DNA from: Candidatus Omnitrophota bacterium
GTDB taxonomy: Bacteria > Omnitrophota > Gorgyraeia > Zapsychrales > Fredricksoniimonadaceae
Reading direction: 5' to 3'
Assembly: GCA_013285735.1 (NCBI GenBank)
Contig: JABDGZ010000003.1
Coordinates: 19,756 to 83,755, forward strand
Length of the DNA: 64,000 bases
This document shows positions 35,982 to 63,378 of the stretch, piece after piece; within the stretch, counting starts at the first letter, position 1; the number at the start of each line of letters is the position of its first letter. The translations under genes were made by a program, and so were the position numbers. The notes beneath the pieces are model-generated. The model was not told where the DNA came from. It made no database searches and was given only the letters and a program-made list of their open reading frames with translations.

Positions 35982-36002
35982 CTTAGCTCAAGGAGAATTG
36001 AC

Positions 36003-36431: not shown

Positions 36432-36439
36432 AAGGATCC

Positions 36440-37657: not shown

Positions 37658-37661
37658 AATA

Positions 37662-38672: not shown

Positions 38673-38803
38673 TTTCCGAACCAAAGCTCATGGTTCGGAG
38701 AAATACTTGCCTTTTAGATAATCCAATGCTATATTTATTTCCGAACCAATAATAGTGGTTCGGAAATATTTATATATAAAATGAGGCATATATGGTTCGG
38801 AAA
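38673..38803. repeat. Two palindromes TTTCCGAACCA-N7-TGGTTCGGA(A/G)A plus a third half-site covering the Fic start codon
   Basis: IR1 at 38673-38703 is imperfect. IR2 at 38737-38767 has perfect 12-bp arms (atttccgaacca / tggttcggaaat). The half-site tggttcggaaa lies at 38793-38803. Confidence 0.55.
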
Positions 38804-39984: not shown

Positions 39985-40407
39985 ATGAAGCCAAAATTTG
40001 AAATAGCAGACGGCTGGATTATGGTTCCGGTTCATTTGAAGGTTTATCCGCTACAGGCTGTTCATTCTTCTGGATATGCCTTTATGGATCGGGCCCACGT
40101 CAGGCTTGAGGAAGAAAAGAAGGATGTTGTAGCTGTTTGGCTTAAGCCTAAGAATGACAAACATGATTTGCAGAAACTGGCCTTGGAATTTTCTGATGAA
40201 TTGTTGAATTATGCGCATTATTTTAGCAGTTTGAAGGCCAATGCAGAGAATATGAAGGTCTTATTACAAAGGGCCCTTTTTTCAGCTTCTCCATCAATCG
40301 TTAAAGAAGCAGAAGAAAAAGAGATTGAAAACTTGATCAAGGAGCTTGAAGCTGAAGAAAAGCAAGCAAGCTCGAAGACAAAGACAACGCCTAAGTCGCG
40401 AAAATAA
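39985..40407 (+). CDS. HxsD-like protein (His-Xaa-Ser system accessory protein family, tentative)
   Basis: 140 aa. VYPLQAVHSSGYAFMDRAHVRLE and FSDELLNYAHYF...MKVLLQRALF resemble the LLNDYxLRE-type family (TIGR03976). Sits directly upstream of the HxsB-like rSAM gene. Confidence 0.5.
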   Translation: MKPKFEIADGWIMVPVHLKVYPLQAVHSSGYAFMDRAHVRLEEEKKDVVAVWLKPKNDKHDLQKLALEFSDELLNYAHYFSSLKANAENMKVLLQRALFSASPSIVKEAEEKEIENLIKELEAEEKQASSKTKTTPKSRK

Positions 40408-40420
40408 TAAAACTTTTCTT

Positions 40421-41800
40421 ATGACACAAACCGCACAATCTTCTATCTTGCCGTTTAACGCTGAAAAAATTAATGATAAATATTTGGTGACCAACATGAT
40501 GGGGTGTTGGGATGCTTTGAATGAAGGTGAATTTCGTCAACTCAACAGCCTGCGCGTTGAGCAGGGAGGGGCGTTATTTAACCGTTTATTAGAGCGTGGA
40601 TTGATCGTCGATGAAGATAATATACGCCGTGTCATTGGCGGGTATAGGAATTTAAACGCGAATCTTTTTACAGATACAAGTCTTCATATCGCTGTTGTGA
40701 CAAAGCGCTGTAATCTGCGTTGTACCTATTGTCATGCCGAAGGTGGAGCTTCTTCTGAGGATATGTCCCTTGAGACAGCCTCCCGCGTCTTGCAATATCT
40801 TTTTGATGTGCGCAGCAACTCAGTGACACTTGAGTTTCAAGGTGGAGAGCCTTTGCTTAATTGGCCGGTGGTAAAATTCATGACCGAGCATGCGCGTCAG
40901 TTCAACACCCTGGGAAAGAACCTTAATATTGTTATTGTGACCAATATGCTGCTCATGGATGATGAGAAAATGCGTTTCTTTGCTGATCATGATGTGATGG
41001 TATGTACGTCTTTGGATGGTCCAGCAGATATCCATGACAAAGCGAGGGTCGATGTTGCAGGGCGCGGGACACATGCCCAATTGGTCGAAAAAATTGAGCG
41101 TTTTGCCAAGCAATTCGGACGTAAGGTGCATATGTTACCAACAATAACCAAGCATTCATTAGCCTACCCTGAGCGGATCATTGATGAATACCTGCGTCTG
41201 GGACAAAGCGAAATTCCTTTAAGACCGGTCAATAAAATAGGCTATGCCTGTGGCAATTGGGAAGATGTTGGATATACAGCCGAAGAATTCAATGTATTTT
41301 ATACTAAAGCAATGGCGTATATTATGAAATTAAATACATCAGGAACCTATATCAGCGAGCGGATGGCCAGGACCATTTTAACCAAGGTCCTGCTCAAGAA
41401 AGACCCAGGTTATGTTGATATGATGAATCCCTGCGGGGCTGGGCGTGCGGTGATGTCTTACGCACCGGATGGAGGATGTTACCCTACGGACGAGGCAAGG
41501 ATGTTAGGTGATAATATTTTCCGGTTGGGGAATATCAAGGATGAAGATTATGATAAAATGCTTAATAAGGAAAATTTGTTTTTTCTTTTAAGTGCCGGCT
41601 GTTCTGATTTGTGGAATTACCGTTCTGTTTATAGCCCCTGGCTTGGTGTTGATCCTGTGGTGAATTATGCGGTAGAAAAAAATGTTATACTAAAGGGAAG
41701 CTCACGTTTGCAACAGGTGTTGAAGCATCAGTTTAAAACGGTTTTTTCTTATCTGCTGGGTGATAAAAAGCATGCGGAAGTTTTTCAACGCTGGTTATAA
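40421..41800 (+). CDS. Radical SAM/SPASM peptide maturase, HxsB-like
   Basis: N-terminal ILPFNAEKINDKYLVTNMMGCWDALNEGEFRQL, then LHIAVVTKRCNLRCTYC (CxxxCxxC). C-terminal Cys-rich SPASM-like region MNPCGAGRAVMSYAPDGGCYP. The ATG at 40421 is preferred to the TTG at 40346. Confidence 0.75.
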   Translation: MTQTAQSSILPFNAEKINDKYLVTNMMGCWDALNEGEFRQLNSLRVEQGGALFNRLLERGLIVDEDNIRRVIGGYRNLNANLFTDTSLHIAVVTKRCNLRCTYCHAEGGASSEDMSLETASRVLQYLFDVRSNSVTLEFQGGEPLLNWPVVKFMTEHARQFNTLGKNLNIVIVTNMLLMDDEKMRFFADHDVMVCTSLDGPADIHDKARVDVAGRGTHAQLVEKIERFAKQFGRKVHMLPTITKHSLAYPERIIDEYLRLGQSEIPLRPVNKIGYACGNWEDVGYTAEEFNVFYTKAMAYIMKLNTSGTYISERMARTILTKVLLKKDPGYVDMMNPCGAGRAVMSYAPDGGCYPTDEARMLGDNIFRLGNIKDEDYDKMLNKENLFFLLSAGCSDLWNYRSVYSPWLGVDPVVNYAVEKNVILKGSSRLQQVLKHQFKTVFSYLLGDKKHAEVFQRWL

Positions 41801-41812
41801 GGGGAGTTCCTG

Positions 41813-42088
41813 ATGAAAAAGAAAATAAAAAGTAAGGTCATTAAAAAAAAGATCCCGCTAACCAAGTCCCTTGGTGAACTGATGAAGGACGAAGACGGTT
41901 TTGTCAGCAAGGAAACTATTTTAAAGGTGGGGTTATCCACCGTCGCAGCACTGGGAATAGCCGGTGCTTTGACAGATATTAGTTCCGGGACGGATGTCAC
42001 AACGCATTCTAATACAGTTTCTCCTGATCCATCTAATGGGCCAAACTGTGCCACACACCACAATGTTACGACACACACTTCATATTAA
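41813..42088 (+). CDS. 91-aa candidate precursor peptide (HxsA-like position) with Lys-rich N-terminus, hydrophobic segment and Thr/His/Asn/Ser-rich tail
   Basis: GGGGAG SD 7 nt upstream. Sequence reads MKKKIKSKVIKKK...LKVGLSTVAALGIAGALT...DVTTHSNTVSPDPSNGPNCATHHNVTTHTSY. The VTTH(S/T)(N/S) unit occurs twice. Confidence 0.5.
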   Translation: MKKKIKSKVIKKKIPLTKSLGELMKDEDGFVSKETILKVGLSTVAALGIAGALTDISSGTDVTTHSNTVSPDPSNGPNCATHHNVTTHTSY

Positions 42089-42116
42089 TTCTATAAGGAA
42101 AATCTTGCTTGTGGGG

Positions 42117-42860
42117 ATGGGTATGAATTATCGCTACGTTTTGTTTTTAGCTTTTTTCTTTGCAGCAAGTTTACCAGTTCAAGCACAACAAAACGATAGC
42201 AGCCCGGCTATGTCAATGGCTTCAGGAGGGTATGCATTGCCTTCCGAGGAAGATTATATTTCCAGACTTCATTTGTATGATTTTCAAGCTGCCCTTAAAG
42301 ATCCATCGATTTGTGCTCAAGATCAAGATTGCCTAAAAAAAATTAAGGTAATCAACACTTTAGAATGCATTATTACTGCCTGTGGCAAGGATGCTGCTAA
42401 GGAATCTGAAGCTTGCGTTTCAGAAAAATTTAATGATTTAAGATTGGATCAAAAGGAAAAAATTTCGACAGATATTTGCGCTTGGGTCAAATCCCCATCT
42501 GCCGCAACCCGCAATAATTTAAAGAATGATGCAGAAGATCGACTTGAGGATGAGAATTTAGTTTTAGCTCAAGCCTATATTTCAGCGATGAACGGATCAG
42601 GCGATGCGTGCCAGCAAACAGTCAAAGACTATATGGGGCCCTATGGTCCTAAATGGGACCGTCAGTGGTATGCCATTTTATCTGAATGCCGTATCCTTTC
42701 TCATCAGCGCAGTGTAGATCAAGAAAAGAGTGATTATTTAGCCTGGTATAAGGTTGAACAGGGAACCGGTCAATGCGCTGGTATTATCAATGAAGAGATG
42801 CGCAGTGCTTGCTCCAATGCTGATGCCCCCTCGCCAATAGCCCCACCTCATGAAGAATAA
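42117..42860 (+). CDS. Secreted Cys-rich protein of unknown function
   Basis: Signal peptide MGMNYRYVLFLAFFFAASLPVQAQQ. Ten Cys in the mature part. The 41994 ORF extension overlaps the precursor gene and is discarded. Confidence 0.5.
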   Translation: MGMNYRYVLFLAFFFAASLPVQAQQNDSSPAMSMASGGYALPSEEDYISRLHLYDFQAALKDPSICAQDQDCLKKIKVINTLECIITACGKDAAKESEACVSEKFNDLRLDQKEKISTDICAWVKSPSAATRNNLKNDAEDRLEDENLVLAQAYISAMNGSGDACQQTVKDYMGPYGPKWDRQWYAILSECRILSHQRSVDQEKSDYLAWYKVEQGTGQCAGIINEEMRSACSNADAPSPIAPPHEE

Positions 42861-44091
42861 ATTTCAACCCAAGGTTGGTATTTATTTTTCCCATTATGAG
42901 TGTCTAGGGCACACCACTCGCGTAATGGCTCTTAGTGAACTAATTAAAGTAAAATACCCTCAAAGTGATCTTTTTGTCATTCAGGCTGGGCTGCCGCAAA
43001 AACATACTCAGTTAGATAATTTGTCTCAAGTTTTTACCTTGCCGCACCCCTTTATGAATAGACAACATTTTCGCCAAGCTCTTAATGCTAGTAATATTGA
43101 TAGTGTGTTGCGTTCAAAAATTTGTAGCAAGATCATTCATTCTCAAAATCCAAAGCTTTTTATTACGGAAACCTTTCCTTTGGGGCATGACGCCTGCCGC
43201 TATGAATTGATTCCATCGCTTGTAGATGCGGCGCGTGGTGGTTCAAGAATCTGGTCCATTGCCGGATATCCTCTGTTGACAGGTAAATCCCAGAATTGGA
43301 AAAATAAAGTCATGGGTCTATATGAAAAGATCTTTATTTGTTGCCCTCAAGAAGAAAAGATTTGGCTTCGTGAGTTTATGCCAAATTCAAAACAGAGAAT
43401 TGAACATCAGGAATTCTTTGATCGATATGCAGCAAAAATCAATTTTATAGGATACTTCTTGCCTCAAGGTCAATTGATTCATGACAAAATTACTAAATTT
43501 AACAGTACTGAAACCAAGTTTAGTCATAAGGTCTTGGTGCTGCGTGGTTCAGGTGCTGTCTATCCTAAATTGATTGCCCAGGCTATTCTCGCCAGTGATG
43601 ATTTGCCCGAATATTTTGAGATGACGATTGTCACTGGTCCTGCAACCACGAATGATGAATGGCAATTATTTAATCGTTTAATGCATAAAAAGCGTTTGAA
43701 TAATGTAAAATTATTACGTGTGGTGAGCCATTACGAAGATCTTATTAAAGTCGCCAGCGTTTGTGTTGCCACTTCAGGTTATCATACTTCAGCCATGCTA
43801 TTGAAGTACCGCAAGAGAGCTGTATTGGTGCCCTTTGAGGGCTATGATAAAACCAATTTTTATGAGCAAAAAGCCAGAGCTGCGATGCTTAAAGAAAAGA
43901 TTGGAGCGCAGGTTATATCGATCAAGGAGCTAAACGCCAAGAACTTGCTCAAGGCCATCTTGATTGCAGCTCAACAGAAAGAAAGTAAGCAGATTTTATC
44001 TAAAGGTTTTTTTGGGGCATCAAGCCGCTTGAATCAAGCGCTGACTGAGCTTTTTGGGCGATCGCAGGGTCAAATAAAGGATCAGCTTTAA
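42850..44091 (+). CDS. GT-B-fold glycosyltransferase-like protein (COG4671/GT28-like), paralog A
   Basis: LGHTTR, FITETFPLG, GYPL, RGSGAVYP, TGPATTNDE and SGYHTS blocks are shared with 62164-63378. Confidence 0.6.
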   Translation: MKNKFQPKVGIYFSHYECLGHTTRVMALSELIKVKYPQSDLFVIQAGLPQKHTQLDNLSQVFTLPHPFMNRQHFRQALNASNIDSVLRSKICSKIIHSQNPKLFITETFPLGHDACRYELIPSLVDAARGGSRIWSIAGYPLLTGKSQNWKNKVMGLYEKIFICCPQEEKIWLREFMPNSKQRIEHQEFFDRYAAKINFIGYFLPQGQLIHDKITKFNSTETKFSHKVLVLRGSGAVYPKLIAQAILASDDLPEYFEMTIVTGPATTNDEWQLFNRLMHKKRLNNVKLLRVVSHYEDLIKVASVCVATSGYHTSAMLLKYRKRAVLVPFEGYDKTNFYEQKARAAMLKEKIGAQVISIKELNAKNLLKAILIAAQQKESKQILSKGFFGASSRLNQALTELFGRSQGQIKDQL

Positions 44092-45025
44092 AGGCGCTGC
44101 CGTAGGCACGTAAGGACATGGCTCGACAGCCTCCAAGACAGGTCTCAATTACGGGACATTGTTGACATAGAGAGGGAAGATAATCAGTGGTGTTAAGCCG
44201 TTGAACAAAGGGGTGTTCCCAAGCTGCTTTGAGGGAATTCCCCAAATTTTCTTCAATAAAATAGCTTGGTTTGTAGTATCCTTTGGCACTGTAAACGATT
44301 CGTAGATGCCCCTCATCGAGTTTAGCGCCTAAAAATATTTTTTGACCAACATTTAAATTTCCTGTAACACATAGCGGGATTGGATTAGAAATAAATACAC
44401 GAATGCCTTGTTGTTGGGCTTTGAGGATCTTGATCGATAATTTTAGATAGAATTCATGATCCATCTGTTTGATCTCTTCATTAGGATGATCGATGGGGCG
44501 TTGCAAGAGCCACGCAGAAGGATTAATTTTGGTAATGAGAGGCAGAAAATCTTCAAATGATTCTACCTTGCTTGGCGTCAGGACGGTTGCAATCCACACG
44601 GTTGGAAGATGGGCTTTTAGTGTAAATATATTTCTTATCTTTTCCAGAAAAGGGAATTTAGTGTGTGTGTAGGCGGCATTAGTTTTTTCGTTATATCCTT
44701 GTACAGAGATGTGAGCCACATCAACTGTTGAAATGATGGTTTTCATTAATGCGGGAGAAATATTTTCTGCAGTGGTATTAATGATAGTATCTAATTTTTT
44801 TGATTTAACGTAGGTTAGAATTTGACCGATATCAGGATGTAGCAGTGGTTCGCCGCCAGTGATACGAATGGCCTTAACCCCGGATTGTGAGACATCATCA
44901 ATGGTTTTTATGATATCCTTAAGAGGGACATCCGGAATTCTTGGGCCAGTGCAATAAGGACATACTTGACGACAGCGTCCCGTTACTTCAAGAATAATTT
45001 CGATGGGTAATGATGGGCGATTCAT
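44000..45025 (-). CDS. Radical SAM/SPASM protein (possible HxsC-like partner)
   Basis: GRCRQVCPYC cluster motif, GGEPLLHP, and C-terminal CQQCPVIETCLGGCRA (SPASM). Confidence 0.8.
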   Translation of the reverse strand: MNRPSLPIEIILEVTGRCRQVCPYCTGPRIPDVPLKDIIKTIDDVSQSGVKAIRITGGEPLLHPDIGQILTYVKSKKLDTIINTTAENISPALMKTIISTVDVAHISVQGYNEKTNAAYTHTKFPFLEKIRNIFTLKAHLPTVWIATVLTPSKVESFEDFLPLITKINPSAWLLQRPIDHPNEEIKQMDHEFYLKLSIKILKAQQQGIRVFISNPIPLCVTGNLNVGQKIFLGAKLDEGHLRIVYSAKGYYKPSYFIEENLGNSLKAAWEHPFVQRLNTTDYLPSLCQQCPVIETCLGGCRAMSLRAYGSAFKADPLFDPAIAQKAQSALDSSGLMPQKNL

Positions 45026-45083
45026 GTTTTTTATTAATCAGGTTAATATATTTTATCTTAACAGAGTTTAGATTTTTTACCAT

Positions 45084-45872
45084 ATGTTCGCAAGTAAGTA
45101 TCTTTTATACCGGATTCTAGGTAATGATATTCCTCTTCGTCATCAAAAAGGACAGACCTTGAGAAATTTAAGGAGGATCCTTGAGGGTGAGGAAGGCTTA
45201 AAGGGTTTGAAAATGCGATGGCTCCTCAATCGAATCGCAGATCAAGAGGTGCAAGCGCAGATTATTAAATTGTTAGACAAATATCAACAAAAATATGAGG
45301 TGATCCCATTCAATTTGGGAAAATTTAAGCGCATCCCCGTAGATGACCTAAAATCGCGCACGGCAGAGTTGATTGGTCTTAATCAAGCACGCAATAAAGT
45401 ATTACGTCAGGGGCAGAAATTAGCCGAATGGACGATGGTTTTTGACGGGAATTGTTTTTTGACATCTCAGGCATGGCAGGAAATTATTCAAGCCATTGAA
45501 AGTGATCAAGCATGTCGATATGGAGTGGTTGCAATGATTCGCATCATCAAGGGGAAGCCTGCTGTTTTGAGTGAACCTCAATTGATGTTTCGTTTTGATG
45601 CGAATGAGAAATTTGATGAAGCTTTTGAATATGGACAGGACAGTAAGATTGAATTATTGCGGCGATTAAATGTATCAGGCGTATGGGATCAGTGGAGTGA
45701 TTCTCTAAAGAAAACTAGAAAAAAGCACAAGATTGAAGGTAGTGTTTGCTATGCAGGTCATGTGCTGCGTTTGCCTTCAGGCAATGAACTAGCGGAAAAA
45801 GATATTAAAATTCGCAAACAACTACGCGATCGCGGAATCATTCATTTGATGAATAGAATTGATCAATGGTAG
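45084..45872 (+). CDS. Unknown protein with GT-A-like remnant motif
   Basis: YRILGNDIPLRH at the N-terminus. GLNQARNKVLRQGQKLAEWTMVFDGNCF resembles the GT2 N.ARN...D.D region with DxD replaced by DGN. Weak call. Confidence 0.35.
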   Translation: MFASKYLLYRILGNDIPLRHQKGQTLRNLRRILEGEEGLKGLKMRWLLNRIADQEVQAQIIKLLDKYQQKYEVIPFNLGKFKRIPVDDLKSRTAELIGLNQARNKVLRQGQKLAEWTMVFDGNCFLTSQAWQEIIQAIESDQACRYGVVAMIRIIKGKPAVLSEPQLMFRFDANEKFDEAFEYGQDSKIELLRRLNVSGVWDQWSDSLKKTRKKHKIEGSVCYAGHVLRLPSGNELAEKDIKIRKQLRDRGIIHLMNRIDQW

Positions 45873-46771
45873 AAAAAATAATTTTCATCCTTATGTTGAT
45901 GATAGGACTTCTCACTTCGTATACGGATTTGAGAGAAAAGAAAATTTATAATCAACATTTGATGATCGGCTATGGGTTAGGGTTTTTAGCCTTAGCTTAT
46001 GCAGTCATTGTTTGGCATGAGGATATTGTTGTTCATCTGATCAATGTTTTAGTTGCTGCATTAATTGGGTTTCTCATGTATCGTTGGGATTTGTGGAGGG
46101 GCGGAGATGCTAAATTATTCACCCTTTACGCTTTTCTCATGCCGACACCAACCAATCATTTACTTCCCTTTGCCAATAGTGTGGCCTATTTGTTTGCTAG
46201 TTCATTTATCGCGGGGATGATGATCCTAACGCCTGTATTTTTAAAGGATATTATTGTTAATTATCGAAACCTTAAAGCAGATTTATTGTCTCTTCCCAAG
46301 CGCAAGGCCTTATTTGAATCGATGATGCAAATGACCATATATTCTTGGATATTACTCCCCTTATTTAATATACTCAAAATTGTCAATCCAGTGATTATTT
46401 TCACCATCTTGTATATCATTTTTAATCATAGTTATTCGTTCAAGAAAAAAGTGCCCCAACATTATATATTCGGATATTTTAAAAGAATTTTCTTTAGGCT
46501 ATGCGTGGCCGTCCTATTGGGAGTTTTGTTGCGTTGTTGGCTTTCACCACAATCTTTAACTCTTTTATCCATAATACGTTATATACTAATGATTACATTA
46601 TCTTGCCTATGCTCAGTGATCCTTAAAACCACATTTGATTATTTTAAAGATTATCAAGACCGTGTTCCTTTTGCGCCATTGCTTTTAATAGGATGTTTGC
46701 TTAGTTATACGCCTTTTTTAAAAGATGTTATTCATGTCATGTCACTTCGCAATTTATTGTTCTCACCTTAG
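45866..46771 (+). CDS. A24-family (prepilin peptidase-like) aspartic membrane protease
   Basis: The two catalytic-Asp contexts, YTDLREKKIYN and WRGGDAKLF. Polytopic, with extra C-terminal TM segments and no N-terminal methyltransferase domain. Confidence 0.6.
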   Translation: MVEKIIFILMLMIGLLTSYTDLREKKIYNQHLMIGYGLGFLALAYAVIVWHEDIVVHLINVLVAALIGFLMYRWDLWRGGDAKLFTLYAFLMPTPTNHLLPFANSVAYLFASSFIAGMMILTPVFLKDIIVNYRNLKADLLSLPKRKALFESMMQMTIYSWILLPLFNILKIVNPVIIFTILYIIFNHSYSFKKKVPQHYIFGYFKRIFFRLCVAVLLGVLLRCWLSPQSLTLLSIIRYILMITLSCLCSVILKTTFDYFKDYQDRVPFAPLLLIGCLLSYTPFLKDVIHVMSLRNLLFSP

Positions 46772-46822
46772 ACGAGGTAGTTGTTAGTTGCTTTTAGTAT
46801 CATTCAATTCTATACTTTATAT

Positions 46823-49472: not shown

Positions 49473-49482
49473 GGAGGCCAGG

Positions 49483-51674: not shown

Positions 51675-51685
51675 GGAGTTCTTTA

Positions 51686-51784
51686 ATGAAAAAACTTGAA
51701 GGGAAGTACGGAGTTCTATTTCTTTCTCCGACATATGCGTTTTTAAGTAAAGAAGCAGTTAGTGCTACACAACAGTTGGCATAA
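51686..51784 (+). CDS. 32-aa small ORF (MKKLEGKYGVLFLSPTYAFLSKEAVSATQQLA), candidate peptide
   Basis: AAGGAG SD 7 nt upstream of the ATG. Lies in the only sizeable intergenic gap of the rSAM locus. Confidence 0.3.
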   Translation: MKKLEGKYGVLFLSPTYAFLSKEAVSATQQLA

Positions 51785-51861
51785 CTAATAGGGGCAGGTC
51801 AATATTTCATAAGCGCAATATTTGGTTGAATCCAGGATTGTGTTTTGAAAAGTTAAAGAAA

Positions 51862-53445: not shown

Positions 53446-53457
53446 GTTAAGAAATAA

Positions 53458-54633: not shown

Positions 54634-54649
54634 AAGAAGTTAATGAACT

Positions 54650-56098: not shown

Positions 56099-56126
56099 TT
56101 ATGTTGGTCAGGATAGGTTTTGAATT

Positions 56127-57161
56127 ATGAAATGTGATCAAAGAGAAAAAGAAATTTTAGCAAGAATTGAAAGCGACCTGCGTCATGTTTTTGCCCCATC
56201 CACCAAAGATAAACAAGTGCGTTTTGGTGGTGTGTGGGAAAGTCAAATTGAGGATTTGTCTAAAACTTTTATTCATGAAGATTTTTCGGTCGATGCCCAG
56301 GTGCTTCGAAAATTTCAACATCTCCAGGTATTTTTTTCGGATATGCCGACAGACCGGTTGTTTTTAAAAAAAATCTTACGAGGGGAAAATGCGTTACAAT
56401 TCAAACGAGATTTAATTGAATTAGTAGGCCTTTTTGAATTAGCTAAACAAACGCGTTTTCAAGACACTGGTATTTTGGATCTCTTAAAGCAATATCCCTG
56501 TAATCGAGTGGGAGATCCAAATGTTTTTATTTATGAGGGGTATCAGTATACAAGAAGATGGATCATCCGCATTTGGCACTTGTTGTTGTTTAAACATTAT
56601 TTGCAACCACGCTTGGAGACTGATTTTTGTTTATTGGATGTCGGCAGCAATTACGGAGTTTTTAACTATTTGATTAAAAAGGAATTTCCAAAGTCTTCGC
56701 AGATTTTAGTAGATTTTCCTCAGACCCTGGCGTTAGCGCATTATTATTTGGGAATATCATTCCCCAAAGCTAGAATAGCCAGTTATAAAGAATTAGCTAA
56801 GCTGGATGTGATTGATCGCAACTTTATTAAAGATTTTGATTTTATTTTGTTACCAACTTTTTTATATAAAAAGATCGCCCCACAGACGCTGGATGTATTT
56901 TGTAGTATTTCATCGTTATGGGAAATGTCGCGGGGATGGTTTGAATATTATATAAATGCTGAACCTTTTTCGAGTGTGAAATATTTCTTTTGTATGAGCA
57001 ATCAAGTTAAGTCGGTTTATTTTGACAAAGAATTGACGATTCTTGATTATCATTTGAGGGAGTTTAAAAAATTATATTTTCAAATCGCTCCTTCTTTCTT
57101 ACCCCCCAAAGAGCCAGAAACGCCCTATTTTGAATATATTGGGCAGAGAATAGGAGTTTAA
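56127..57161 (+). CDS. Class I SAM-methyltransferase-like protein (putative sugar O-methyltransferase), tentative
   Basis: LLDVGSNYGVFNYL resembles SAM motif I. 344 aa. Confidence 0.4.
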   Translation: MKCDQREKEILARIESDLRHVFAPSTKDKQVRFGGVWESQIEDLSKTFIHEDFSVDAQVLRKFQHLQVFFSDMPTDRLFLKKILRGENALQFKRDLIELVGLFELAKQTRFQDTGILDLLKQYPCNRVGDPNVFIYEGYQYTRRWIIRIWHLLLFKHYLQPRLETDFCLLDVGSNYGVFNYLIKKEFPKSSQILVDFPQTLALAHYYLGISFPKARIASYKELAKLDVIDRNFIKDFDFILLPTFLYKKIAPQTLDVFCSISSLWEMSRGWFEYYINAEPFSSVKYFFCMSNQVKSVYFDKELTILDYHLREFKKLYFQIAPSFLPPKEPETPYFEYIGQRIGV

Positions 57162-58210
57162 TTATCGAAAAATTAATTAATCAAATTAATCACGTTTGGT
57201 TATTCTTTACGGATCGATGTAACCTGGGCTGTGGGTATTGTTTTTATAAATATAGGACCCAACAACAGGTGATTTCTTTAAAGACTTTTGGGCACATTGT
57301 AGATTTTATCCGTCCTGTAGCTCCAGCGGAATTTGTATTTTCTGGTGGAGAGCCTTTGATGGATGCCGACAGGCTTAAAGAAATGATACAGGTTATTGAT
57401 CAGGAAAATCTCGCCCGGTATATTTCCGTACAAACTAATGCCACCTTATTGGATGCAGCGTTGATGCAGTTTTTCTTAGAACGGGGCGTTAATTTGGAGG
57501 TTGGTATTGATGGTGATGAACCAACAACGCAACGCAACCGGCCAGGTATTGGTCCTTATTTTTATAAGGATATTGTCCGTGGCGTTGAACTTGTCTTAGG
57601 TTCTAAAGGGTTTTTTACGACGACCATGGTTGTGCATCCAACCGGAGTCTCGAAAATGTTTGAAAATTTAAAATATTTAGCTGCCATGGGATTAACGTCT
57701 ATTGAAGCGCATCCAGCTTTTCTTGAAGTTTGGAATAAAGAATCATCAGATATATTTGTGGATCAATATCGTCAGATATGCGCTTGGGAATTAAAAGAAG
57801 GGAAGCATGGATTAATCGGTCGTGGTTATAGCAAGTCTTCCCCAGGAAGCTGGGATTTATTATCTGTTCCTAGCGGTAAAATTCTGACGAATTGGCTTTT
57901 ACTTTCATTTCCTGAAGAAGTTCGTGAAGAATTGTATGTCATGGATTTTAGTCAAAACGCTTCAGGAGACCTCTTGCCGCAGGGGGAACGTTATTTTAAA
58001 GCATTAGATTCATTTTTATCTGAACATCCTCGATGTTCTTATCGAAGTATCAGTAATTTTAATGCGATGCAGGCGGTTAAAACATCAGCAGGAGCTCGTT
58101 TTGAAGAAAGGGTCAGGAATTATATTGACCTTTGCGAACGCATAGAGACTATTGATCAAAAAATTATGGGAACAAACTTATGGCGAGCGTCAGGTACGAA
58201 AGTATATTAG
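57161..58210 (+). CDS. Radical SAM protein with no canonical start codon upstream of its cluster motif (ATT 57161 or ATC 57164 proposed)
   Basis: The frame is open from 57134. It reads IIEKLINQINHVWLFFTDRCNLGCGYC, with no ATG, GTG or TTG before the Cys motif. AGGAG sits at 57152-57156. The ORF-track start at 57269 would delete the CxxxCxxC motif. Confidence 0.6.
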   Translation: MIEKLINQINHVWLFFTDRCNLGCGYCFYKYRTQQQVISLKTFGHIVDFIRPVAPAEFVFSGGEPLMDADRLKEMIQVIDQENLARYISVQTNATLLDAALMQFFLERGVNLEVGIDGDEPTTQRNRPGIGPYFYKDIVRGVELVLGSKGFFTTTMVVHPTGVSKMFENLKYLAAMGLTSIEAHPAFLEVWNKESSDIFVDQYRQICAWELKEGKHGLIGRGYSKSSPGSWDLLSVPSGKILTNWLLLSFPEEVREELYVMDFSQNASGDLLPQGERYFKALDSFLSEHPRCSYRSISNFNAMQAVKTSAGARFEERVRNYIDLCERIETIDQKIMGTNLWRASGTKVY

Positions 58211-59289
58211 TCGAACAAGCATTAAGTCGTGAATACGCATCCGAATTGGATACTGTTCTCAAAGGAATGGCGGGTTTAAATGATATTAAACCGTTGATTC
58301 GTGAATTTGAGAAAGTTTTTGCCAAATATATCGGTGTCAAAGAAGCAGTTGCTGTTAATTCCGGAAGTGATGCTTTAAAAATGGCGTTGTTGGCGGCTGA
58401 TGTTGGTCGTGGAGATGAAGTTATTGTTCCTAATTTGACCTATCAAGCTGTTGCATTAGCGGTATGTTATTGTGGCGCAAAGCCAGTAGCTGTTGATGCC
58501 ATGAAAGAAGACCTAGAAATTAATCCTGAATTAATTGAAAAAGCTATCAGTAAGAAAACAAAAGCGTTAATTGCCGCCCATATGTTTGGACGTCCTTGTC
58601 AGATGGATAGGATTAAAATGATTTGTCAAAAAAAGAATATTATTTTAATTGAGGATGTTTGTCAGGCTGAAAGTTCCCGTTACAAAGGACAAATGTTGGG
58701 TAGTTTTGGAGACATGGCCGTATTTTCTTTTTCATATTATAAACCTTTGTCATCATGTGGCGGCGGAGGGGGCATGGTTGTCTGTTCTGAAAATAAATCT
58801 AAACGTATTCGACGATGGATGCAAGATTGGCAAGATGATGGGGAATTGTTAAAAACAGGGCAGCGGTTTGCGCCCATGGCCCTCATGGATTTAATCGCTT
58901 TGCGCGTTAAATTTTTTCATTTAAAAGAAATTATTAAGTCACGGTATCAAGCAAAAGCTTTATACGAGAAAAAACTTGGCGGTATCAAGGGTTTGACAAT
59001 CTTTAAAGATCAAGCGCAAACAGAAAGCGTTGCACAAAATTTTGTCATATGTGCTCAATCCCGAGATCTTTTATTTGATCAATTGATTAAGCAAGGGGTC
59101 ATGGCCCAAAAGGCATATTTGCCGTTACATCGAATGGCGGCATTGAAAGGGATTAAGAAGAAATTTCCGGTCAGTGAATGGTATGCTGATACGGCCTTAC
59201 ATCTTCCACTACATTCGTTTATGAGCCAGGATAAAATCGAGCATGTTGTTGCCTGTTGTCAGTCTTTTTTAAGAAGTCAAAATTTATGA
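58180..59289 (+). CDS. DegT/DnrJ/EryC1/StrS-family PLP-dependent sugar aminotransferase
   Basis: FEKVFAKYIGVKEAVAVNSGSDALKMAL, HMFGRPC, and SFSYYKPLSS (Lys region). An alternative start lies at 58267. Confidence 0.8.
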   Translation: MASVRYESILVEQALSREYASELDTVLKGMAGLNDIKPLIREFEKVFAKYIGVKEAVAVNSGSDALKMALLAADVGRGDEVIVPNLTYQAVALAVCYCGAKPVAVDAMKEDLEINPELIEKAISKKTKALIAAHMFGRPCQMDRIKMICQKKNIILIEDVCQAESSRYKGQMLGSFGDMAVFSFSYYKPLSSCGGGGGMVVCSENKSKRIRRWMQDWQDDGELLKTGQRFAPMALMDLIALRVKFFHLKEIIKSRYQAKALYEKKLGGIKGLTIFKDQAQTESVAQNFVICAQSRDLLFDQLIKQGVMAQKAYLPLHRMAALKGIKKKFPVSEWYADTALHLPLHSFMSQDKIEHVVACCQSFLRSQNL

Positions 59290-60257
59290 TCATTGATATC
59301 ATAGAAATGAAACAGCGATATTTAAAGCGGATTGCTGGGGCCCGTGATAAGAAAATTTTCATCGGTCCTGAAGTTGTAACTTTAAATATTAATACTTCAT
59401 GTAATCTTAATTGTCGTTTTTGTGGGCCTCAAGTTTCTCCTAATTCAGCTTTTTTGAATAAAAATATCGTTTTTAGATGGAAAAAAATTTTAGGGATTGT
59501 TCGTGATTGTATTGATTTGAAAGTTGATCAGATCGTTATCATGGGAACAGGGGAGCCAACAATTGACCCTTTGTTTCGACATATGATGCGCAAATTAGAG
59601 CAACAGCCTGTCTATGTCAAACTTTTCACAAATGGGACATTTCCTTCAGAGTATTGTTCTGATGTGATCAAAGGAGATCATGTAGTTATTAATTTGAGCA
59701 CGGTCGATCGACAACAGTATCATGATTTGCAAGGAGGAGATTTCTTTAACAATGTGGTGGCTAATATTAAGCATCTGGTCGCCTTGCGCGATGCGTACAA
59801 GCCAAGATTTCTTATTGAAATCGCTTATATTGTGAATGCCGCTAACATTAATCAAAAACAAAAAATGCAGGAATTGGCGTCTCAGCTTGGTGTCAACGCA
59901 GTTCATTTTAGAAAAATGGCCGTGAGTGATTATAACCGAGAAATCGCCTTACCTGATGGTTCTCCAGATGCTGTGGAAAAGAGGACTCCCTCTTTATGCT
60001 TAAGTGGTTGGTTTAATTTAGTTTTAAAATTAGATGGAAAGACCAGTGCTAGTACCTGTACCAATATCCATGGTCTACATTTTGGTGATATTGATAAATT
60101 GTCATTAAAAGAGATTTGGTTTTCACAGCATATGATGAACGTGAGACTTTTGGGTGGATTTGGCCAAATCCAAAAAATGTTTAAAGCTTGCCAAACTTGT
60201 TCTTTTTACGTTGAAAATGTTCAGCGAATACAAGATATGTCAGGAATCACATTATGA
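59286..60257 (+). CDS. Radical SAM protein
   Basis: CNLNCRFC motif, GTGEPTIDP, C-terminal CQTC. ATGA overlap with DegT. Confidence 0.8.
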   Translation: MIIDIIEMKQRYLKRIAGARDKKIFIGPEVVTLNINTSCNLNCRFCGPQVSPNSAFLNKNIVFRWKKILGIVRDCIDLKVDQIVIMGTGEPTIDPLFRHMMRKLEQQPVYVKLFTNGTFPSEYCSDVIKGDHVVINLSTVDRQQYHDLQGGDFFNNVVANIKHLVALRDAYKPRFLIEIAYIVNAANINQKQKMQELASQLGVNAVHFRKMAVSDYNREIALPDGSPDAVEKRTPSLCLSGWFNLVLKLDGKTSASTCTNIHGLHFGDIDKLSLKEIWFSQHMMNVRLLGGFGQIQKMFKACQTCSFYVENVQRIQDMSGITL

Positions 60258-61222
60258 AAATAAACCCGACTAAAATTAGGCTGGATGCCTCAACAGTTTG
60301 CCAGTTGAAATGCCCGTCTTGTTCTAATGCTCTTGGTTCTATTGATCAATCGCTGGGATCTAAGCATTTAAAATTTGTGCATTTTAAGCAATTGTTGGAA
60401 TCAAATCCATGGATACGCACTATTGAGTTGAGTAACTGGGGGGAGATTTTTTTGAATCCTGAGTTATTGGAGATTGCAAAGTATGCCTTTGAAAAAAACG
60501 TTATGCTCAATGCTGCCAACGGTGTTAATCTCAATACCATTCGGGAAGAAATGTTAGAGGCGTTGGTCAAATATCGATTTGGTGTAATCACGTGTTCCAT
60601 TGATGGGGCAAGCCAGGAGACCTACAAGATTTATCGAAAGAATGGTGATTTTGAGGTTGTTATAGCTAATATTAAAAAGATTAACGCATATAAGGTTAAA
60701 TATAACTCCCCGTTACCTAAATTACGTTGGCAATATATTGCCTTTGGGCACAATGAGCATGAGATCTTGAAGGCTAAGAAAATGGCTATTAAATTAGATA
60801 TGAAATTTCATTTGAAACTGGCATGGGGGGCAGGTTTTTCACCTATTAAAAGTAAAGAAATGATAAAGATGTTTTCCGGTTTAGATATCCTTAACAGAGA
60901 TGAATACCAAAAAAAATACGGCAAGTTTTATTTATCTGAAAGCATTTGCTCCCAAATGTGGATTCAGCCCCAGATTAATGCTGATGGGCGGGTATTGGGA
61001 TGCAGCGTAAATTACTGGGGAGATTATGGCAATGCGTTTAAGCAGGATCTTAAGGGAATTCTTAATAATGAAAAAATGAATTATGCCCGAGCCATGTTGC
61101 TTGGGAAAAAAGAATCCAGAGAAGATATTCCCTGTACAAAATGTCTTTGCTATATAGAAATGAAAAAGAATAATACGTGGTTATTTTCCAGGAGACAAGG
61201 TAATGAAGCCATTACTGGATGA
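60254..61222 (+). CDS. Radical SAM protein
   Basis: CQLKCPSC motif and NWGEIFLNP. ATGA overlap with the upstream rSAM gene. Confidence 0.8.
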   Translation: MKINPTKIRLDASTVCQLKCPSCSNALGSIDQSLGSKHLKFVHFKQLLESNPWIRTIELSNWGEIFLNPELLEIAKYAFEKNVMLNAANGVNLNTIREEMLEALVKYRFGVITCSIDGASQETYKIYRKNGDFEVVIANIKKINAYKVKYNSPLPKLRWQYIAFGHNEHEILKAKKMAIKLDMKFHLKLAWGAGFSPIKSKEMIKMFSGLDILNRDEYQKKYGKFYLSESICSQMWIQPQINADGRVLGCSVNYWGDYGNAFKQDLKGILNNEKMNYARAMLLGKKESREDIPCTKCLCYIEMKKNNTWLFSRRQGNEAITG

Positions 61223-62216
61223 TATTACGATTGAAATAACCAATCATTGCCAGCTTCATTGTCAACATTGTGGGATTTGGGCTGAGCCTGAGCGTCATGA
61301 AATGACAGCCGCCATGATTGTGCGTTCTATCAGTGAACTGCTTGGCAAATATCAGATTAAATTTGTCTCTATCACAGGTGGTGAGCCTTTTTTAAATCGT
61401 AATTGTGGGCGGCTCTTAAAGGCCTTGTCTATTTTAAGAGAACGTCGCGATATTAATGGTTTTGGGGTGTATAGCAATGCGGCTTACTTTGAGGGTGTTC
61501 GTCGGGTTTTGACCAATTATATGCCTTATGTGCGGGGGATGCATATGGGGATAAGTGTCGATGGTAACCCGCAGACGCATGATGTGTTAAGAGGCCAAGG
61601 TTTCTATCAAAAGACTTTTAAAACCATTGATTGGATCGTGGAAAATTTCAAGAAGCATATTATTTTAGAATTTAAATTTACGATTAACAGTGTTAATTAT
61701 GCGGATTTGTATGATGTTTATCAACTAGCCCGTCGTTATGATGTACGTTTTTCGCCGAAGATCATGGAGTCATCAGTGAAAGATTATTACCACCGTCATC
61801 AAATGCCCAATACAGATGCATTAGCTGCATTGTCCAAGGATCAAATTAAGCAGGTAAAGTCCCAAATTAATCAGATGCTCAAGGATGATTATCATGGTGT
61901 AGATCGTCAGATGGTTGAGGCAAGTATGGTGTTATTAGAAGGAGGTCGCCAATGCATCCGTGCCTGCGAAACCCCAGCACGTTCATTGTTCATTACTTCC
62001 AGACGAGAGGTTTTTCCTTGCTTATATATGTCATCAGCAGGATTTTTATCTAATCAGGGAGCCTTACCCGCTGCATTGGATGAAGTAAGATCAATGCATG
62101 CTCAAAATGCAGCTCAAGGTCAATGTCCTGGATGCTTTGCCTACCATGGATTCTTAAAGAAATTCAATCTAGCTTATCTTCAAGTACCCAACGTGCAGTC
62201 GTCTCAGCACCGTTAA
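61203..62216 (+). CDS. Radical SAM protein with SPASM/twitch-like C-terminal Cys cluster
   Basis: CQLHCQHC motif, TGGEPFLN, and C-terminal CIRAC...C...CPGC. Confidence 0.8.
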   Translation: MKPLLDDITIEITNHCQLHCQHCGIWAEPERHEMTAAMIVRSISELLGKYQIKFVSITGGEPFLNRNCGRLLKALSILRERRDINGFGVYSNAAYFEGVRRVLTNYMPYVRGMHMGISVDGNPQTHDVLRGQGFYQKTFKTIDWIVENFKKHIILEFKFTINSVNYADLYDVYQLARRYDVRFSPKIMESSVKDYYHRHQMPNTDALAALSKDQIKQVKSQINQMLKDDYHGVDRQMVEASMVLLEGGRQCIRACETPARSLFITSRREVFPCLYMSSAGFLSNQGALPAALDEVRSMHAQNAAQGQCPGCFAYHGFLKKFNLAYLQVPNVQSSQHR

Positions 62217-63378
62217 ACCAACTTGCAGGTGCAGATTTTGGTTTAGGGCTTTTCAATTTATTTCTGATCGCTTGGGCCAAGGTCTGTGCATTGAGTTTAT
62301 CATATTCAATCACCTGGGCTTGAAAACGTTCTTGCATCAGATGCGCTCGTGCCACCTGATCGTTGGTGGTGGTTTTAAGGAGTGTATTTCTTGAAAGAGT
62401 ATTTTGATAGGGCACCAAAATAGAAGGTGTGCCAAAGCGCATCAATTGCACGGAGGTATTATAGCCACATAAACTGATCGAGACTTTGCAGTCTTGAAAT
62501 AATTGATCTAGATGTTCTGTTTGATCAATGAGGGTGATGCGGGCTAAATCTTTGGGTTTCAAACAGGATTGAAAGAGAGCTTTTTCTTCATCTGTAGTGG
62601 CTGGACCTGTGCTAATGATCATATGGATATTATCTTTGATCAGGCGTTGAGCTTCAATCGCACAGGTGATGATATTTGGATAAACAGCTCCACCCCCACG
62701 AGAAACAACGATCAACGGTGCTTTCTTATCAAATTTAGGCAAAGGTTTTTGTTTAACCATCACCTGTTCGGGAAAAACATAGCCGGTGTATTTAATTTTA
62801 TCTTTAAGATCATCCATGATTCTTTGATACATATCAGCCAGGACAGGGGATTGAATGCTTTGATGGATATAGGTGTTTTCAAGTTCCTGAGGCGTGTGAA
62901 TTAAAAAGGCATCATATAAAGCAAAGATGGCCCGATGAATCGCAGCAAACGATTTATCTTGAAGTTTATTTAAATCAATAATTAAGGGATATCCAATACT
63001 TGAAATTATTTTTGTCCCTTTCTTGCGTAAGAATTTTAAAGTGGGCAATAATTCCGCAGCATAAGCTAGGCGGCCAAAAGGGAAGAATTCAGTGATGAAG
63101 ACATCAGGTTTAAACGCTGCAGCTGTCCGTAAAATAAATTTGGCGCGCTCAGAAGATGAATGCGGTATGACATGACTCTGAAAACTTTCCCTGGTATCAA
63201 AGGGGCTTGGAATATCTTTGACAATTGCCCCTTTAGGAAAACGAATAAAGGGTTGAATTTGACCACCTTGCAGGATCAAAATATCTGATTTATGACGACA
63301 AAAAGCAGTGGCTAAGGATATGCTTCGGGTCGTATGACCTAAGGTTTGTTTGTGGGTGTAGTGAAATAAAATTCGCAT
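62164..63378 (-). CDS. GT-B-fold glycosyltransferase-like protein (COG4671/GT28-like), paralog B
   Basis: LGHTTR, FITEFFPFG, GYPL, RGGGAVYP, TGPATTDEE and CGYNTS blocks are shared with 42850-44091. Confidence 0.6.
   Translation of the reverse strand: MRILFHYTHKQTLGHTTRSISLATAFCRHKSDILILQGGQIQPFIRFPKGAIVKDIPSPFDTRESFQSHVIPHSSSERAKFILRTAAAFKPDVFITEFFPFGRLAYAAELLPTLKFLRKKGTKIISSIGYPLIIDLNKLQDKSFAAIHRAIFALYDAFLIHTPQELENTYIHQSIQSPVLADMYQRIMDDLKDKIKYTGYVFPEQVMVKQKPLPKFDKKAPLIVVSRGGGAVYPNIITCAIEAQRLIKDNIHMIISTGPATTDEEKALFQSCLKPKDLARITLIDQTEHLDQLFQDCKVSISLCGYNTSVQLMRFGTPSILVPYQNTLSRNTLLKTTTNDQVARAHLMQERFQAQVIEYDKLNAQTLAQAIRNKLKSPKPKSAPASWFNGAETTARWVLEDKLD

Follow-up and report, generated by a model that had tools for sequence, protein, structure and literature searches.

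A candidate relative of HxsA3-type HXS systems in Omnitrophota: a locus with seven radical SAM genes, an A24 peptidase-like gene, and glycosyltransferase genes around a conserved 91-aa protein

Within the 64,000-nucleotide stretch of a Candidatus Omnitrophota genome analyzed in this work (contig JABDGZ010000003.1, positions 19,756 to 83,755; hereafter the window, with coordinates counted from its first nucleotide), 23 closely packed genes at 39985–63378, 21 of them on the plus strand, combine seven genes encoding radical S-adenosylmethionine (SAM) proteins with genes of peptide maturation and glycan chemistry. On balance, though with limited confidence, we favor the reading that the HxsA3-type HXS systems have in this locus an expanded relative specific to Omnitrophota, whose product is a 91-amino acid (aa) protein encoded within it and not a free polysaccharide. 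The product is probably a membrane peptide that would be matured by radical SAM enzymes, cleaved by an A24-family peptidase and probably glycosylated. As judged from the comparison of related sequences, the locus may be read as composed of three parts, i.e., a conserved core (39985–46771), a widely linked block of radical SAM, DegT, and glycosyltransferase (GT) genes at its 3' end (57161–63378), and a strain-variable decoration island between them (46.8–57.2 kb). All genes mentioned below are located on the plus strand unless indicated otherwise.

The initial annotation of the window, made from the sequence alone, had reported seven open reading frames (ORFs) with the CxxxCxxC motif of radical SAM proteins, and all seven were recovered where it had placed them. 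When ORFs of 200 aa or more are considered throughout the window, the CX3CX2C motif occurs eight times, namely seven times inside the locus and once outside it, in a PilB protein, where it belongs to a zinc finger. The concentration of seven radical SAM motifs in one locus is far from chance. Each of the seven ORFs combines the motif with a Pfam match, as expected for members of the radical SAM superfamily, and six of them exceed the gathering score of PF04055, the remaining one (50295–51674) reaching 27.8 bits against 29.5 with a conserved motif. It should be stressed that the related loci carry three to eight radical SAM genes, some of them B12-dependent or MiaB-like, at distances of up to about 20 kb from HxsB, so seven such genes are typical for this family and not unique to the genome studied.

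The comparison covered the 21-kb HxsB neighborhoods L003–L007 (HxsB identity from 85% down to 51%), later supplemented with L091 and L092, as well as 80 metagenome loci with HxsB identity from 89% to 31%. The window itself was encountered only in Logan contigs of run SRR8422745 and in an NCBI/JGI contig of 114 kb. A core module recurs in every locus with HxsB identity of at least 39% and enough flanking sequence (about 20 loci). It comprises genes of an HxsD-like protein, HxsB, a small protein of 87–107 aa, in most cases a Cys-rich secreted protein (about 250 aa), a GT of the GT-B type (about 400 aa), a second radical SAM enzyme, and an A24-like protein, and its synteny is retained in L003–L007, L010, L015, L023, L026, L029, L033, L053, L091, and L092. 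The peptide-maturation character ascribed earlier to this part of the window is borne out, as the Hxs-like genes, the 91-aa ORF, and the A24 gene are syntenic in every Omnitrophota-type relative examined.

The first gene of the core (39985–40407) encodes the small HxsD-like protein, located directly upstream of HxsB in all relatives. It gained 30 bits with TIGR03976 (cutoff 50), its homologs of 74–86% identity have precomputed matches to the Pfam family HxsD (PF27806), and it contains an ELLNYAHY motif resembling LLNDYxLRE. The next gene (40421–41800, with an alternative TTG start at 40346) encodes HxsB, a radical SAM/SPASM-type maturase with the motif CNLRCTYC, which scored 379.6 bits with TIGR03978 and thereby exceeded the equivalog cutoff of 370. 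HxsB homologs with 80–89% identity are distributed across many metagenome-assembled genomes, and the named ones are assigned to Candidatus Omnitrophota or Omnitrophica. In the same pairs of genomes the identity of HxsB amounts to 83–85% and that of the neighboring PilC to 83–88%; HxsB is thus as conserved as PilC, and the locus is conserved like housekeeping genes.

The presumed substrate of these enzymes is the 91-aa protein encoded at 41813–42088, a distant relative of HxsA3 and the only ORF of its kind in the window. Its conservation, which the initial annotation had made a test of its proposal, is evident from 209 clusters of homologs. The protein starts with a Lys-rich leader (41813–41899) ending in an invariant KDEDG, after which an A24-type cut before F30 (41900) is predicted, and continues with a hydrophobic membrane helix and a tail of 35 aa, rich in His, Thr, Ser, and Asn, with H-x-N, a Cys, H-x-N-V-T-T, and a C-terminal H-T-S-Y. 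In the 120 best of the 209 clusters the stretch KSLGxLMKDEDGFVSKETILKVGLSTVAALG is nearly invariant, and the otherwise variable tail keeps H-x-N, N-C, H-T-N-[VI]-T-T, and C-terminal H-[TS]-S-Y. In the window protein, the best 15-residue stretch within the 30 residues past the KDEDG motif had a mean Kyte–Doolittle hydropathy of about 1.9. A profile search of 1.84 billion representatives yielded 82 clusters whose small proteins are built in this way; D[ED]xG was present within the first 60 residues in 77 of the 82, and a C-terminal Tyr, mostly as H-x-S-Y, in 55 of the 81 short members. With the HxsA3 model (NF038309, cutoff 65) the window protein scored 20.4 bits, the L053 relative 42.1 bits, and the L085 control 104.1 bits, which leaves the window protein outside the family as delimited by that model. 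No other HxS-rich ORF was detected in the window.

The core ends with a gene (45866–46771) encoding an A24-family aspartyl peptidase-like membrane protein, which scored 29.4 bits with PF01478 (cutoff 26.5) and contains both catalytic Asp motifs of the family (SYTD21L and GGD81AKL) as well as a C-terminal VPFAP. The Asp motifs are conserved in the relatives and align with those of the A24-like protein of the HxsA3 locus L085. With a hidden Markov model built from the Omnitrophota A24 proteins, homologs were found beside HxsB in 33 loci, also in those with 31–38% HxsB identity that are bona fide HxsA3 systems (76 bits for HxsD, 61 for HxsD-like, 309 for HxsC, and 104 for HxsA3). In the HxsA3 proteins of the latter, a membrane helix comes after the same kind of leader, F-[IL]-N-D-E-E-G-N-I-T-R-N-K.

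The acidic-Gly leader and the A24 gene occur together. Across 24 loci with enough flank, a raw count based on a regular expression gave 18 loci with both, none with the leader only, two with A24 only, and four with neither (Fisher p = 0.0014). Both A24-only loci turned out to be misses of the regular expression and were corrected by hand, and L089 and L091 (each with both features) and L092 were added afterwards, which gave 22 loci with both, four with neither, and one exception among 27. In three of the four loci with neither feature the HxsA proteins have ordinary Sec-type signal peptides, and in the fourth, L027, the leader lacks the Gly (FLKDKKNTFSK) and no A24 homolog was found. Judging from this co-occurrence, the A24 peptidase may cut the substrate after the leader Gly. 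By the working definition adopted here, i.e., an acidic-Gly leader followed by a helix and an A24-like gene in the cluster, the window locus belongs to the HxsA3 type.

Two further enzymes of the core may act on the same protein. The second radical SAM enzyme (44000–45025, minus strand; CRQVCPYC; PF04055, 57.7 bits) has a C-terminal CX2CX5CX3C of the SPASM/twitch kind; its best NCBIfam matches, PqqE (62 bits, cutoff 381) and the mycofactocin maturase (41 bits, cutoff 265), are far below the cutoffs, and its best, remote match in PDB is also PqqE. Homologs with 28–71% identity were found in all of the about 15 loci whose precursor ends with Tyr, and were absent from L034 and L089/L090, whose precursors end with Gly-Lys, which tentatively suggests that this enzyme may act on the C-terminal Tyr. 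Its assignment as HxsC was considered and rejected, since TIGR03977 was not among its top 25 matches and real HxsC or HxsC4-like genes are present separately in distant relatives. Altogether, sequence searches in PDB gave remote matches for two radical SAM enzymes, to PqqE and to anSME. The core GT (42850–44091; Glyco_tran_28_C, 33.8 bits) is a cytoplasmic enzyme of the GT-B type; its AlphaFold2 model (mean predicted local distance difference test score of 83.7) matched best MurG and GT1 natural-product GTs in Foldseek, a generic GT-B fold shared also by uridine diphosphate-sugar epimerases, and the sequence search in PDB gave no match. The family of this GT consists of 54 clusters, those with a source name being all from Omnitrophota, and was found in at least 11 related loci. 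The two remaining genes of this stretch encode a secreted Cys-rich protein (42105–42860, start as in L008; 10 Cys, signal peptide), without a family match and with 33–42% identical syntenic counterparts in L003–L006, L010, and L015, and a protein of 262 aa specific to the window genome (45084–45872), for which no family, PDB, or locus homolog was found.

Among the closest known systems is canonical HXS (HxsD-HxsB-HxsC-HxsA), whose anti-phage function, the blocking of phage DNA entry, was demonstrated in 2026, and which was reported to be confined in 99.7% to Pseudomonadota (PMC13128918). In this system HxsB, HxsC, and HxsD mature the Sec-targeted, peptidoglycan-binding HxsA, which also undergoes N-terminal processing by a protease that has not been identified, and in E. 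coli HxsA an HxsB/HxsC-dependent change of +8 Da was located on SHRSS (PMC13128918). The window locus shares with it HxsB above the equivalog cutoff, an HxsD-like gene directly upstream, a substrate with His-x-Ser-type motifs encoded next to radical SAM genes, and, as expected here, cytoplasmic radical SAM maturation followed by N-terminal processing and export. However, it lacks HxsC, since with TIGR03977 (cutoff 267.9) the best radical SAM protein of the window, that encoded at 57161, obtained 38.5 bits, and the true HxsC proteins of L085 and L054 obtained 309–338 bits. The substrate differs as well: an HxsA effector has a Sec signal, a peptidoglycan-binding domain, and about five HxS repeats, whereas the 91-aa protein has neither a Sec signal peptide nor a peptidoglycan-binding or any other Pfam domain, and contains one H-x-S and two H-x-N. 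Moreover, the locus studied adds the A24 peptidase, the GT-Bs, the second SPASM radical SAM enzyme, the secreted Cys-rich protein, and up to five further radical SAM enzymes, and represents a conserved, syntenic Omnitrophota locus. As HxsC is lacking, the "Hxs-like module" of the initial annotation does not correspond to a standard one. Among the distant loci of the Omnitrophota type, L053, L027, and L091 retain an HxsC4/HxsC-like radical SAM gene and an HxsD-like small ORF between HxsD and HxsB, and the clade of the window has lost these two genes.

Similarities were also found to the HxsA3-type loci, represented in this study by L085, L065, L037, and L052 from gut and other metagenomes and described by the NCBIfam models NF038309 (HxsA3) and NF038315 (HxsD-like). 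Shared features are the leader F-x-[NDK]-D-E-[ED]-G followed by a membrane helix, a polytopic A24-like protein with both Asp motifs, HxsD, and HxsB. In contrast to the locus of the window, the HxsA3-type loci have retained HxsC (309 bits) as well as a second, HxsD-like small protein, the tails of their HxsA3 proteins are long and contain 12–19 HxS repeats, and they are devoid of the GT-B, the 44000-type radical SAM enzyme, and the extra radical SAM and DegT genes. The claim that no characterized pathway has this composition needs updating in view of the canonical HXS work and of the HxsA3 and HxsD-like variant models already held in NCBIfam; our literature searches, which covered A24/prepilin peptidases in connection with radical SAM enzymes or with ribosomally synthesized and post-translationally modified peptides (RiPPs) and Omnitrophota in connection with radical SAM enzymes or pilins, found no paper describing this type of locus or its A24 link.

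The leader also resembles those of Flp/Tad prepilins. In the Flp prepilin PilA of Caulobacter it reads FLKDESG|ATAIEYG, and such prepilins have in common with the 91-aa protein a short Lys-rich leader ending with acidic-x-Gly, a hydrophobic segment directly after it, and a small mature product, and the A24 protein resembles TadV/CpaA in having no methyltransferase domain. Unlike in Flp, the segment following the Gly (FVSKETILK) is charged and does not contain the AxxIEYGLI motif, there are no Tad genes in the locus, the peptidase has about 300 aa and an extra membrane region, and the tail would be a radical SAM target. Membership of the small protein in the Flp family was rejected, as Pfam Flp_Fap (PF04964) gave no match at E ≤ 10 for any of ten precursors, i.e., the window protein and nine relatives; what we claim for the small protein is a prepilin-like behavior and not prepilin identity. 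The locus also resembles the mycofactocin (MftA/MftC) and pyrroloquinoline quinone (PqqA/PqqE) maturation systems, in that the gene of a SPASM radical SAM enzyme matching best PqqE and the mycofactocin maturase lies next to that of a small precursor whose C-terminal Tyr is invariant; it differs from them in having no PqqD/MftB-type partner besides HxsD and in a precursor that keeps a membrane helix.

The widely linked block at the 3' end of the locus begins with the radical SAM gene 57161–58210 (CNLGCGYC; PF04055, 61.3 bits; best matches to PapB, 82 bits, and anSME), paired with a gene of a DegT/DnrJ/EryC1 sugar aminotransferase (58180–59289; PF01041, 261 bits). These are followed by two radical SAM/SPASM genes matching both PF04055 and PF13186 (59286–60257, CNLNCRFC, and 60254–61222, CQLKCPSC), another radical SAM gene (61203–62216, CQLHCQHC; PF04055, 55.8 bits), and, on the minus strand, a second GT-B gene (62164–63378; Glyco_tran_28_C, 32.2 bits), paralogous to the core GT. 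Counterparts of this block directly adjoin the core in L007 (33%, 51%, 27%, 30%, and 34% identity), L053, L026, and L033. More specifically, the 57161 enzyme has DegT-adjoining homologs in L002 (72% identity) and in both L007 and L053 (33%); DegT is 48–51% identical in L007 and L053, beside the core; homologs of the 59286 enzyme (59256-type) located close to the core show 37% identity in L092 and 27% in L007; the 61203 enzyme is 30% identical in L007 and 24% in L053; and the second GT-B shows 28–34% identity to the core-flanking GTs of L007, L053, and L033. In L006 the position equivalent to that of the radical SAM–DegT pair is occupied by a fusion of a GFO/IDH/MocA oxidoreductase with DegT, which fits the DegT-adjacent radical SAM enzyme supplying a keto intermediate anaerobically. 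The adjacency of the two genes also parallels the oxidize-then-transaminate routes with a BtrN-type radical SAM dehydrogenase and an aminotransferase.

The start of the 57161 gene is unusual. Between the upstream stop codon (57131) and the Cys motif there is no ATG, GTG, or TTG, and only ATT, ATC, and ATA are available, the start being placed at the non-canonical ATT at 57161 or 57176. The former overlaps the TAA of the preceding gene (TAATT), and coupled re-initiation at a non-canonical codon may take place there. A pseudogene was considered and rejected, since the frame is open over 358 codons and its product is 72% identical to the L002 homolog, which starts with GTG.

Between the core and the 3' block lies the variable island. 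It starts with a gene (46781–47821) whose product had been called GNAT-like, a call that could not be confirmed, no Pfam, NCBIfam, or PDB match being obtained; the protein shows a weak, 25% identical match to an L089 protein with a faint Acetyltransf_1 signal. Further genes encode an APH-family kinase (47818–48780; PF01636, 39.6 bits), a DUF2064/TIGR04282, CofC-like nucleotidyl/glycosyl-transferase (48777–49472; PF09837, 60.2 bits; TIGR04282, 135.8 bits, cutoff 134), and a methyltransferase-like protein (49465–50316) with weak matches to Methyltransf_25 and DUF3419 (16 bits), paired with a radical SAM protein (50295–51674; CRYHCAFC at residue 168). The latter resembles class B enzymes, matching the core regions of PhpK, HpnJ, and HpnR, although no B12 domain was detectable in it. 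Next are a polytopic, PMT/ArnT-like membrane GT of the GT-C type (51826–53445; PMT and PMT_2 below the gathering scores, LA_3751/2 family 24.7 bits), a GT9 heptosyltransferase-family GT (53458–54633; PF01075, 84.9 bits), an Asn-synthetase-type ATP-dependent amidotransferase/ligase without the glutaminase Cys (54650–56098; PF00733, 74.6 bits), and a NanM-type sugar O-methyltransferase (56127–57161; TIGR04371, 92.4 bits, cutoff 44). Taking the locus as a whole, most of the companion genes named in the initial annotation (HxsB, A24, two GT-Bs, GT9, DegT, Cys-less AsnB-like, APH, DUF2064, and a methyltransferase, of the NanM type) were recovered with Pfam or NCBIfam, and the GT-C and DUF3419 calls turned out to be weak.

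The distribution of the island genes is patchy. Homologs of the 49465 protein were found after the core in L003, L004, and L010 (35–37% identity) and in L002 (76%), and the 50295 enzyme is 61% identical in L002, with the motif kept, and 28–29% in L003 and L010. The pair 49465–51674 follows the core in L003 and L010, and in L002 it is accompanied by an AsnB-like gene (50% identical to 54650, adjoining the 50295-type gene), GT2, GT-C, and the 57161-type radical SAM gene. For 46781–49472, 51826–54633, and 56127–57161 no counterpart was found in the fetched loci except a 28% identical GT9 in L029 and the above-mentioned L089 protein. A metagenome scan with the alignment of the 50295 enzyme gave no relatives, and a scan of the genome collection gave a single Omnitrophota contig of 6.3 kb. 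As the 46.8–57.2 kb genes are missing in the nearest relatives and their GC content is lower, this region looks like a variable add-on and not like a fixed part of the single 23-kb pathway envisaged at first. The GC minimum of the whole window (0.33) falls over the GT-C and GT9 genes (51826–54633), consistent with a recent acquisition of that part.

Combining these data, which establish by computation the gene families, their co-occurrence, the conservation of the 91-aa protein, and the leader–A24 association, the following hypothetical course of events may be proposed. HxsD and HxsB would bind the conserved N-terminal region of the small protein, and HxsB would modify the H-x-N and H-x-S motifs of its tail in the cytoplasm, by analogy with the HxsB/HxsC-dependent modification of SHRSS mentioned above. 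The PqqE/MftC-like SPASM enzyme (44000–45025) could act on the invariant C-terminal Tyr, and the GT-Bs (42850 and 62164) could attach a sugar to the Thr/Ser/Asn-rich tail. This sugar might be made or tailored by the radical SAM–DegT pair, through anaerobic oxidation followed by transamination to an amino sugar, together with the other radical SAM enzymes. The protein would then insert into the inner membrane, where the A24 peptidase would cut after the invariant Gly29 (KDEDG|FVSKE), as TadV/CpaA does on Flp prepilins, so that about 62 aa would remain as a helix-anchored peptide whose modified tail is periplasmic or exposed on the surface. The island would add strain-specific decoration by means of the kinase and nucleotidyltransferase, the methyltransferase-like and radical SAM pair, GT-C, GT9, amidotransferase, and O-methyltransferase.

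Several observations weigh against this reading. The small protein (20 vs. 65 bits) and HxsD (30 vs. 50 bits) are both below the cutoffs of their models, and, given the lack of Flp_Fap matches, the likeness to prepilins rests on a short motif and on the known leaders of Flp proteins. The loci share ancestry, so the counts for the leader and A24 are not independent, and L092 has the leader and no A24 gene within 10 kb. The link between the C-terminal Tyr and the 44000-type enzyme depends on just two negative loci, and the acceptor of the core GT is not readable from its fold. Finally, the nearest relatives (L003, L005, and L010) show within 10 kb neither the DegT block nor the 46.8–57.2 kb genes, and the island, with GC content of 0.33–0.39, resembles a typical lipopolysaccharide (LPS)/glycan set and is linked to the peptide indirectly, via L002 and L003.

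An alternative explanation is that of two unrelated neighbors, i.e., an Hxs-like module (39985–46771) and an ordinary LPS, O-antigen, or surface-glycan island (46781–63378) with radical SAM tailoring of sugars, which we regard as possible, though rather doubtful. GT9, ArnT/PMT-like GT-C, DegT, the AsnB-like protein, the NanM O-methyltransferase, and the kinase with the nucleotidyltransferase make up a typical glycan set, the GC content falls in this region, three of its segments (46781–49472, 51826–54633, and 56127–57161) have no homolog in the nearest relatives, and a gap of 151 bp separates 51674 from 51826. On the other hand, the block of the 57161 enzyme, DegT, radical SAM, and GT abuts the core in L007, L053, L026, and L033, the methyltransferase-like and 50295-type genes follow the core in L003 and L010, a GT-B is encoded within the core itself, the genes from 45084 to 62216 are all co-directional and densely packed, and the relatives also carry three to eight radical SAM genes beside the core. 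Moreover, no flippase (Wzx), polymerase (Wzy), chain-length regulator (Wzz), initiating (phosphoglycosyl) transferase, or ABC exporter was found among the 23 locus proteins with Pfam and NCBIfam, and the locus is not an ordinary O-antigen or capsule locus. Two neighbors are plausible for the 46.8–57.2 kb region and not plausible for the 3' block. Of the two products considered in the initial annotation, the tailored, perhaps glycosylated, ribosomal peptide fits better than the surface glycan, given the GT-B of the core, the block beside it in the four relatives, and no Wzx/Wzy/Wzz; and none of the findings that were to make it an ordinary O-antigen or capsule locus was made, i.e., radical SAM genes each belonging to a well-known housekeeping or sugar-pathway family, a gene set not conserved together, or a 91-aa ORF neither conserved nor expressed. 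As for the fate of the peptide, the gene content, with a precursor, HxsB with an N-terminal extension, and a protease, fits a RiPP cluster in the general sense. A cluster producing a diffusible RiPP, secreted as an antibiotic or signal, seems nevertheless highly improbable, despite the additional presence of a GT1-like GT and several SPASM radical SAM enzymes with best matches to the RiPP maturases SCIFF, PapB, and AmcB. No exporter or immunity gene was found and the predicted mature product would retain its hydrophobic helix, which makes diffusion unlikely, and phylum-wide conservation with a near-invariant sequence is unusual for RiPP clusters.

An anti-phage barrier like HXS, in which a modified His-rich tail, displayed in the periplasm on a membrane helix in place of a peptidoglycan-binding domain, would block the entry of phage DNA, is in our opinion unlikely, yet it is suggested by analogy: HxsB and HxsD are homologous to components of a system that does so via a radical SAM-matured periplasmic HxS effector (PMC13128918), and a SoFic-type gene (PADLOC, 120 bits) lies immediately upstream of the locus. 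However, the core is as conserved as its housekeeping neighbors and keeps a fixed position in several genomes, unlike sporadic defense islands; HxsC and the peptidoglycan-binding domain are absent; and PADLOC recognized no known or system-level defense system, giving only generic viperin-type radical SAM matches on the core. The tail, with only three His motifs, is not basic, so the electrostatic DNA-binding model is not directly transferable. Still less probable is a filament subunit, i.e., a modified Flp-like pilin polymerized by the type-IV-pilus ATPases and platform protein encoded upstream. The genes at 32140–38672 encode two PilB-like ATPases, each preceded by a stand-alone MshEN protein, PilC, and a secreted coiled-coil protein, with no pilin or prepilin peptidase among them, and the same set is located directly upstream of HxsD in L003, L005, L010, L011, and L012; the leader is Flp-like, with Gly at −1 and, in Omnitrophota, an acidic residue at +5, and so is the mature size of about 62 aa. 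Nevertheless, the pilus genes adjoin the core in one close subclade only (not in L004, L006, L007, L026, L053, L091, or L092), for which reason we down-weighted pilus linkage as a general feature, Lys residues at +4 and +9 past the cleavage site are unlike pilin alpha1-N helices, and Pfam Flp did not match.

The preferred reading of an expanded HxsA3 relative may be extended to a hitherto unknown kind of envelope molecule, in which features of a RiPP and of a type-IV/Flp pilin would be combined. Several radical SAM enzymes would cross-link or otherwise alter the ribosomal peptide, with new chemistry at H-x-N and the C-terminal Tyr, an amino sugar made by radical SAM chemistry would decorate it, and a dedicated prepilin-type peptidase would release it, the product being displayed on, or polymerized from, the membrane of Omnitrophota, which are ultra-small and host-dependent, and belonging to the core of their surface biology. 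This extension is speculative and, as a whole, unlikely; if true, it would supply the protease logic that is missing in the wider HxsA3 branch. One large branch of HXS with a leader resembling that of Flp prepilins and a dedicated A24 peptidase offers a directly testable processing mechanism. With three to eight radical SAM genes present together with GT genes, the locus hints at a radical chemistry that has yet to be explored and that would act on a small membrane protein, and the system is possibly a defining surface structure of Omnitrophota nanobacteria, a phylum with, to our knowledge, almost no cultivated members. With pilin and flagellin glycosylation islands the locus shares the clustering of variable DegT, GT, O-methyltransferase, amidotransferase, and GT-C genes with the gene of a small surface-directed protein; it differs from the known ones in a far higher content of radical SAM genes, and none of its genes was recognized as encoding a PglL-, PilO-, or PglB-type oligosaccharyltransferase.

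The genes of the locus are tightly packed, although the ATGA, GTGA, or TTGA overlaps said to occur at most junctions were found at only four of the 22. Six further junctions overlap by 1–34 bases, and the gaps do not exceed 28 bases except for that of 151 bases and a divergent region of 58 bases. Both GT-B genes overlap their convergent neighbors, by 92 bases at 44000–44091 and by 53 bases at 62164–62216, and the former overlap is kept in relatives (80 bases in L003 and L004). The Rfam scan of the whole window revealed no RNA families, and the promoter and terminator scans were at chance level, so the operon boundaries could not be set.

Several minor observations concern the relatives of the core. 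In L004 (4530–9988) a second copy of HxsD and three extra radical SAM-type genes precede HxsD-HxsB, which gives seven to eight radical SAM genes in 20 kb, and in L092 a Peptidase_U32 gene (14388–15281) is present near the core. The small proteins of L089/L090 (3240–8751) and L034 (11358–11675) form a sub-family ending with Gly-Lys instead of H-x-S-Y; in L089 this gene is followed by genes of a ketoacyl synthase and an acyl carrier protein, which hints at a different, possibly lipid-type, modification of the tail. The hydrophobic part of the small-protein profile gave matches to 33 repeated stretches of the giant protein P0298 (4220 aa), probably as a compositional or repeat artifact. Upstream of the locus, the SoFic-type gene (38792–39838), encoding a Fic protein with a helix-turn-helix domain, represents an insertion that separates HxsD from the pilus genes in the window genome only, L003, L005, and L010 being without it. 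Further upstream, at 27460–28929, a Memo-AMMECR1 fusion with an apparent N-terminal signal or hydrophobic segment is encoded, its AmmeMemoRadiSam radical SAM partner being not adjacent.

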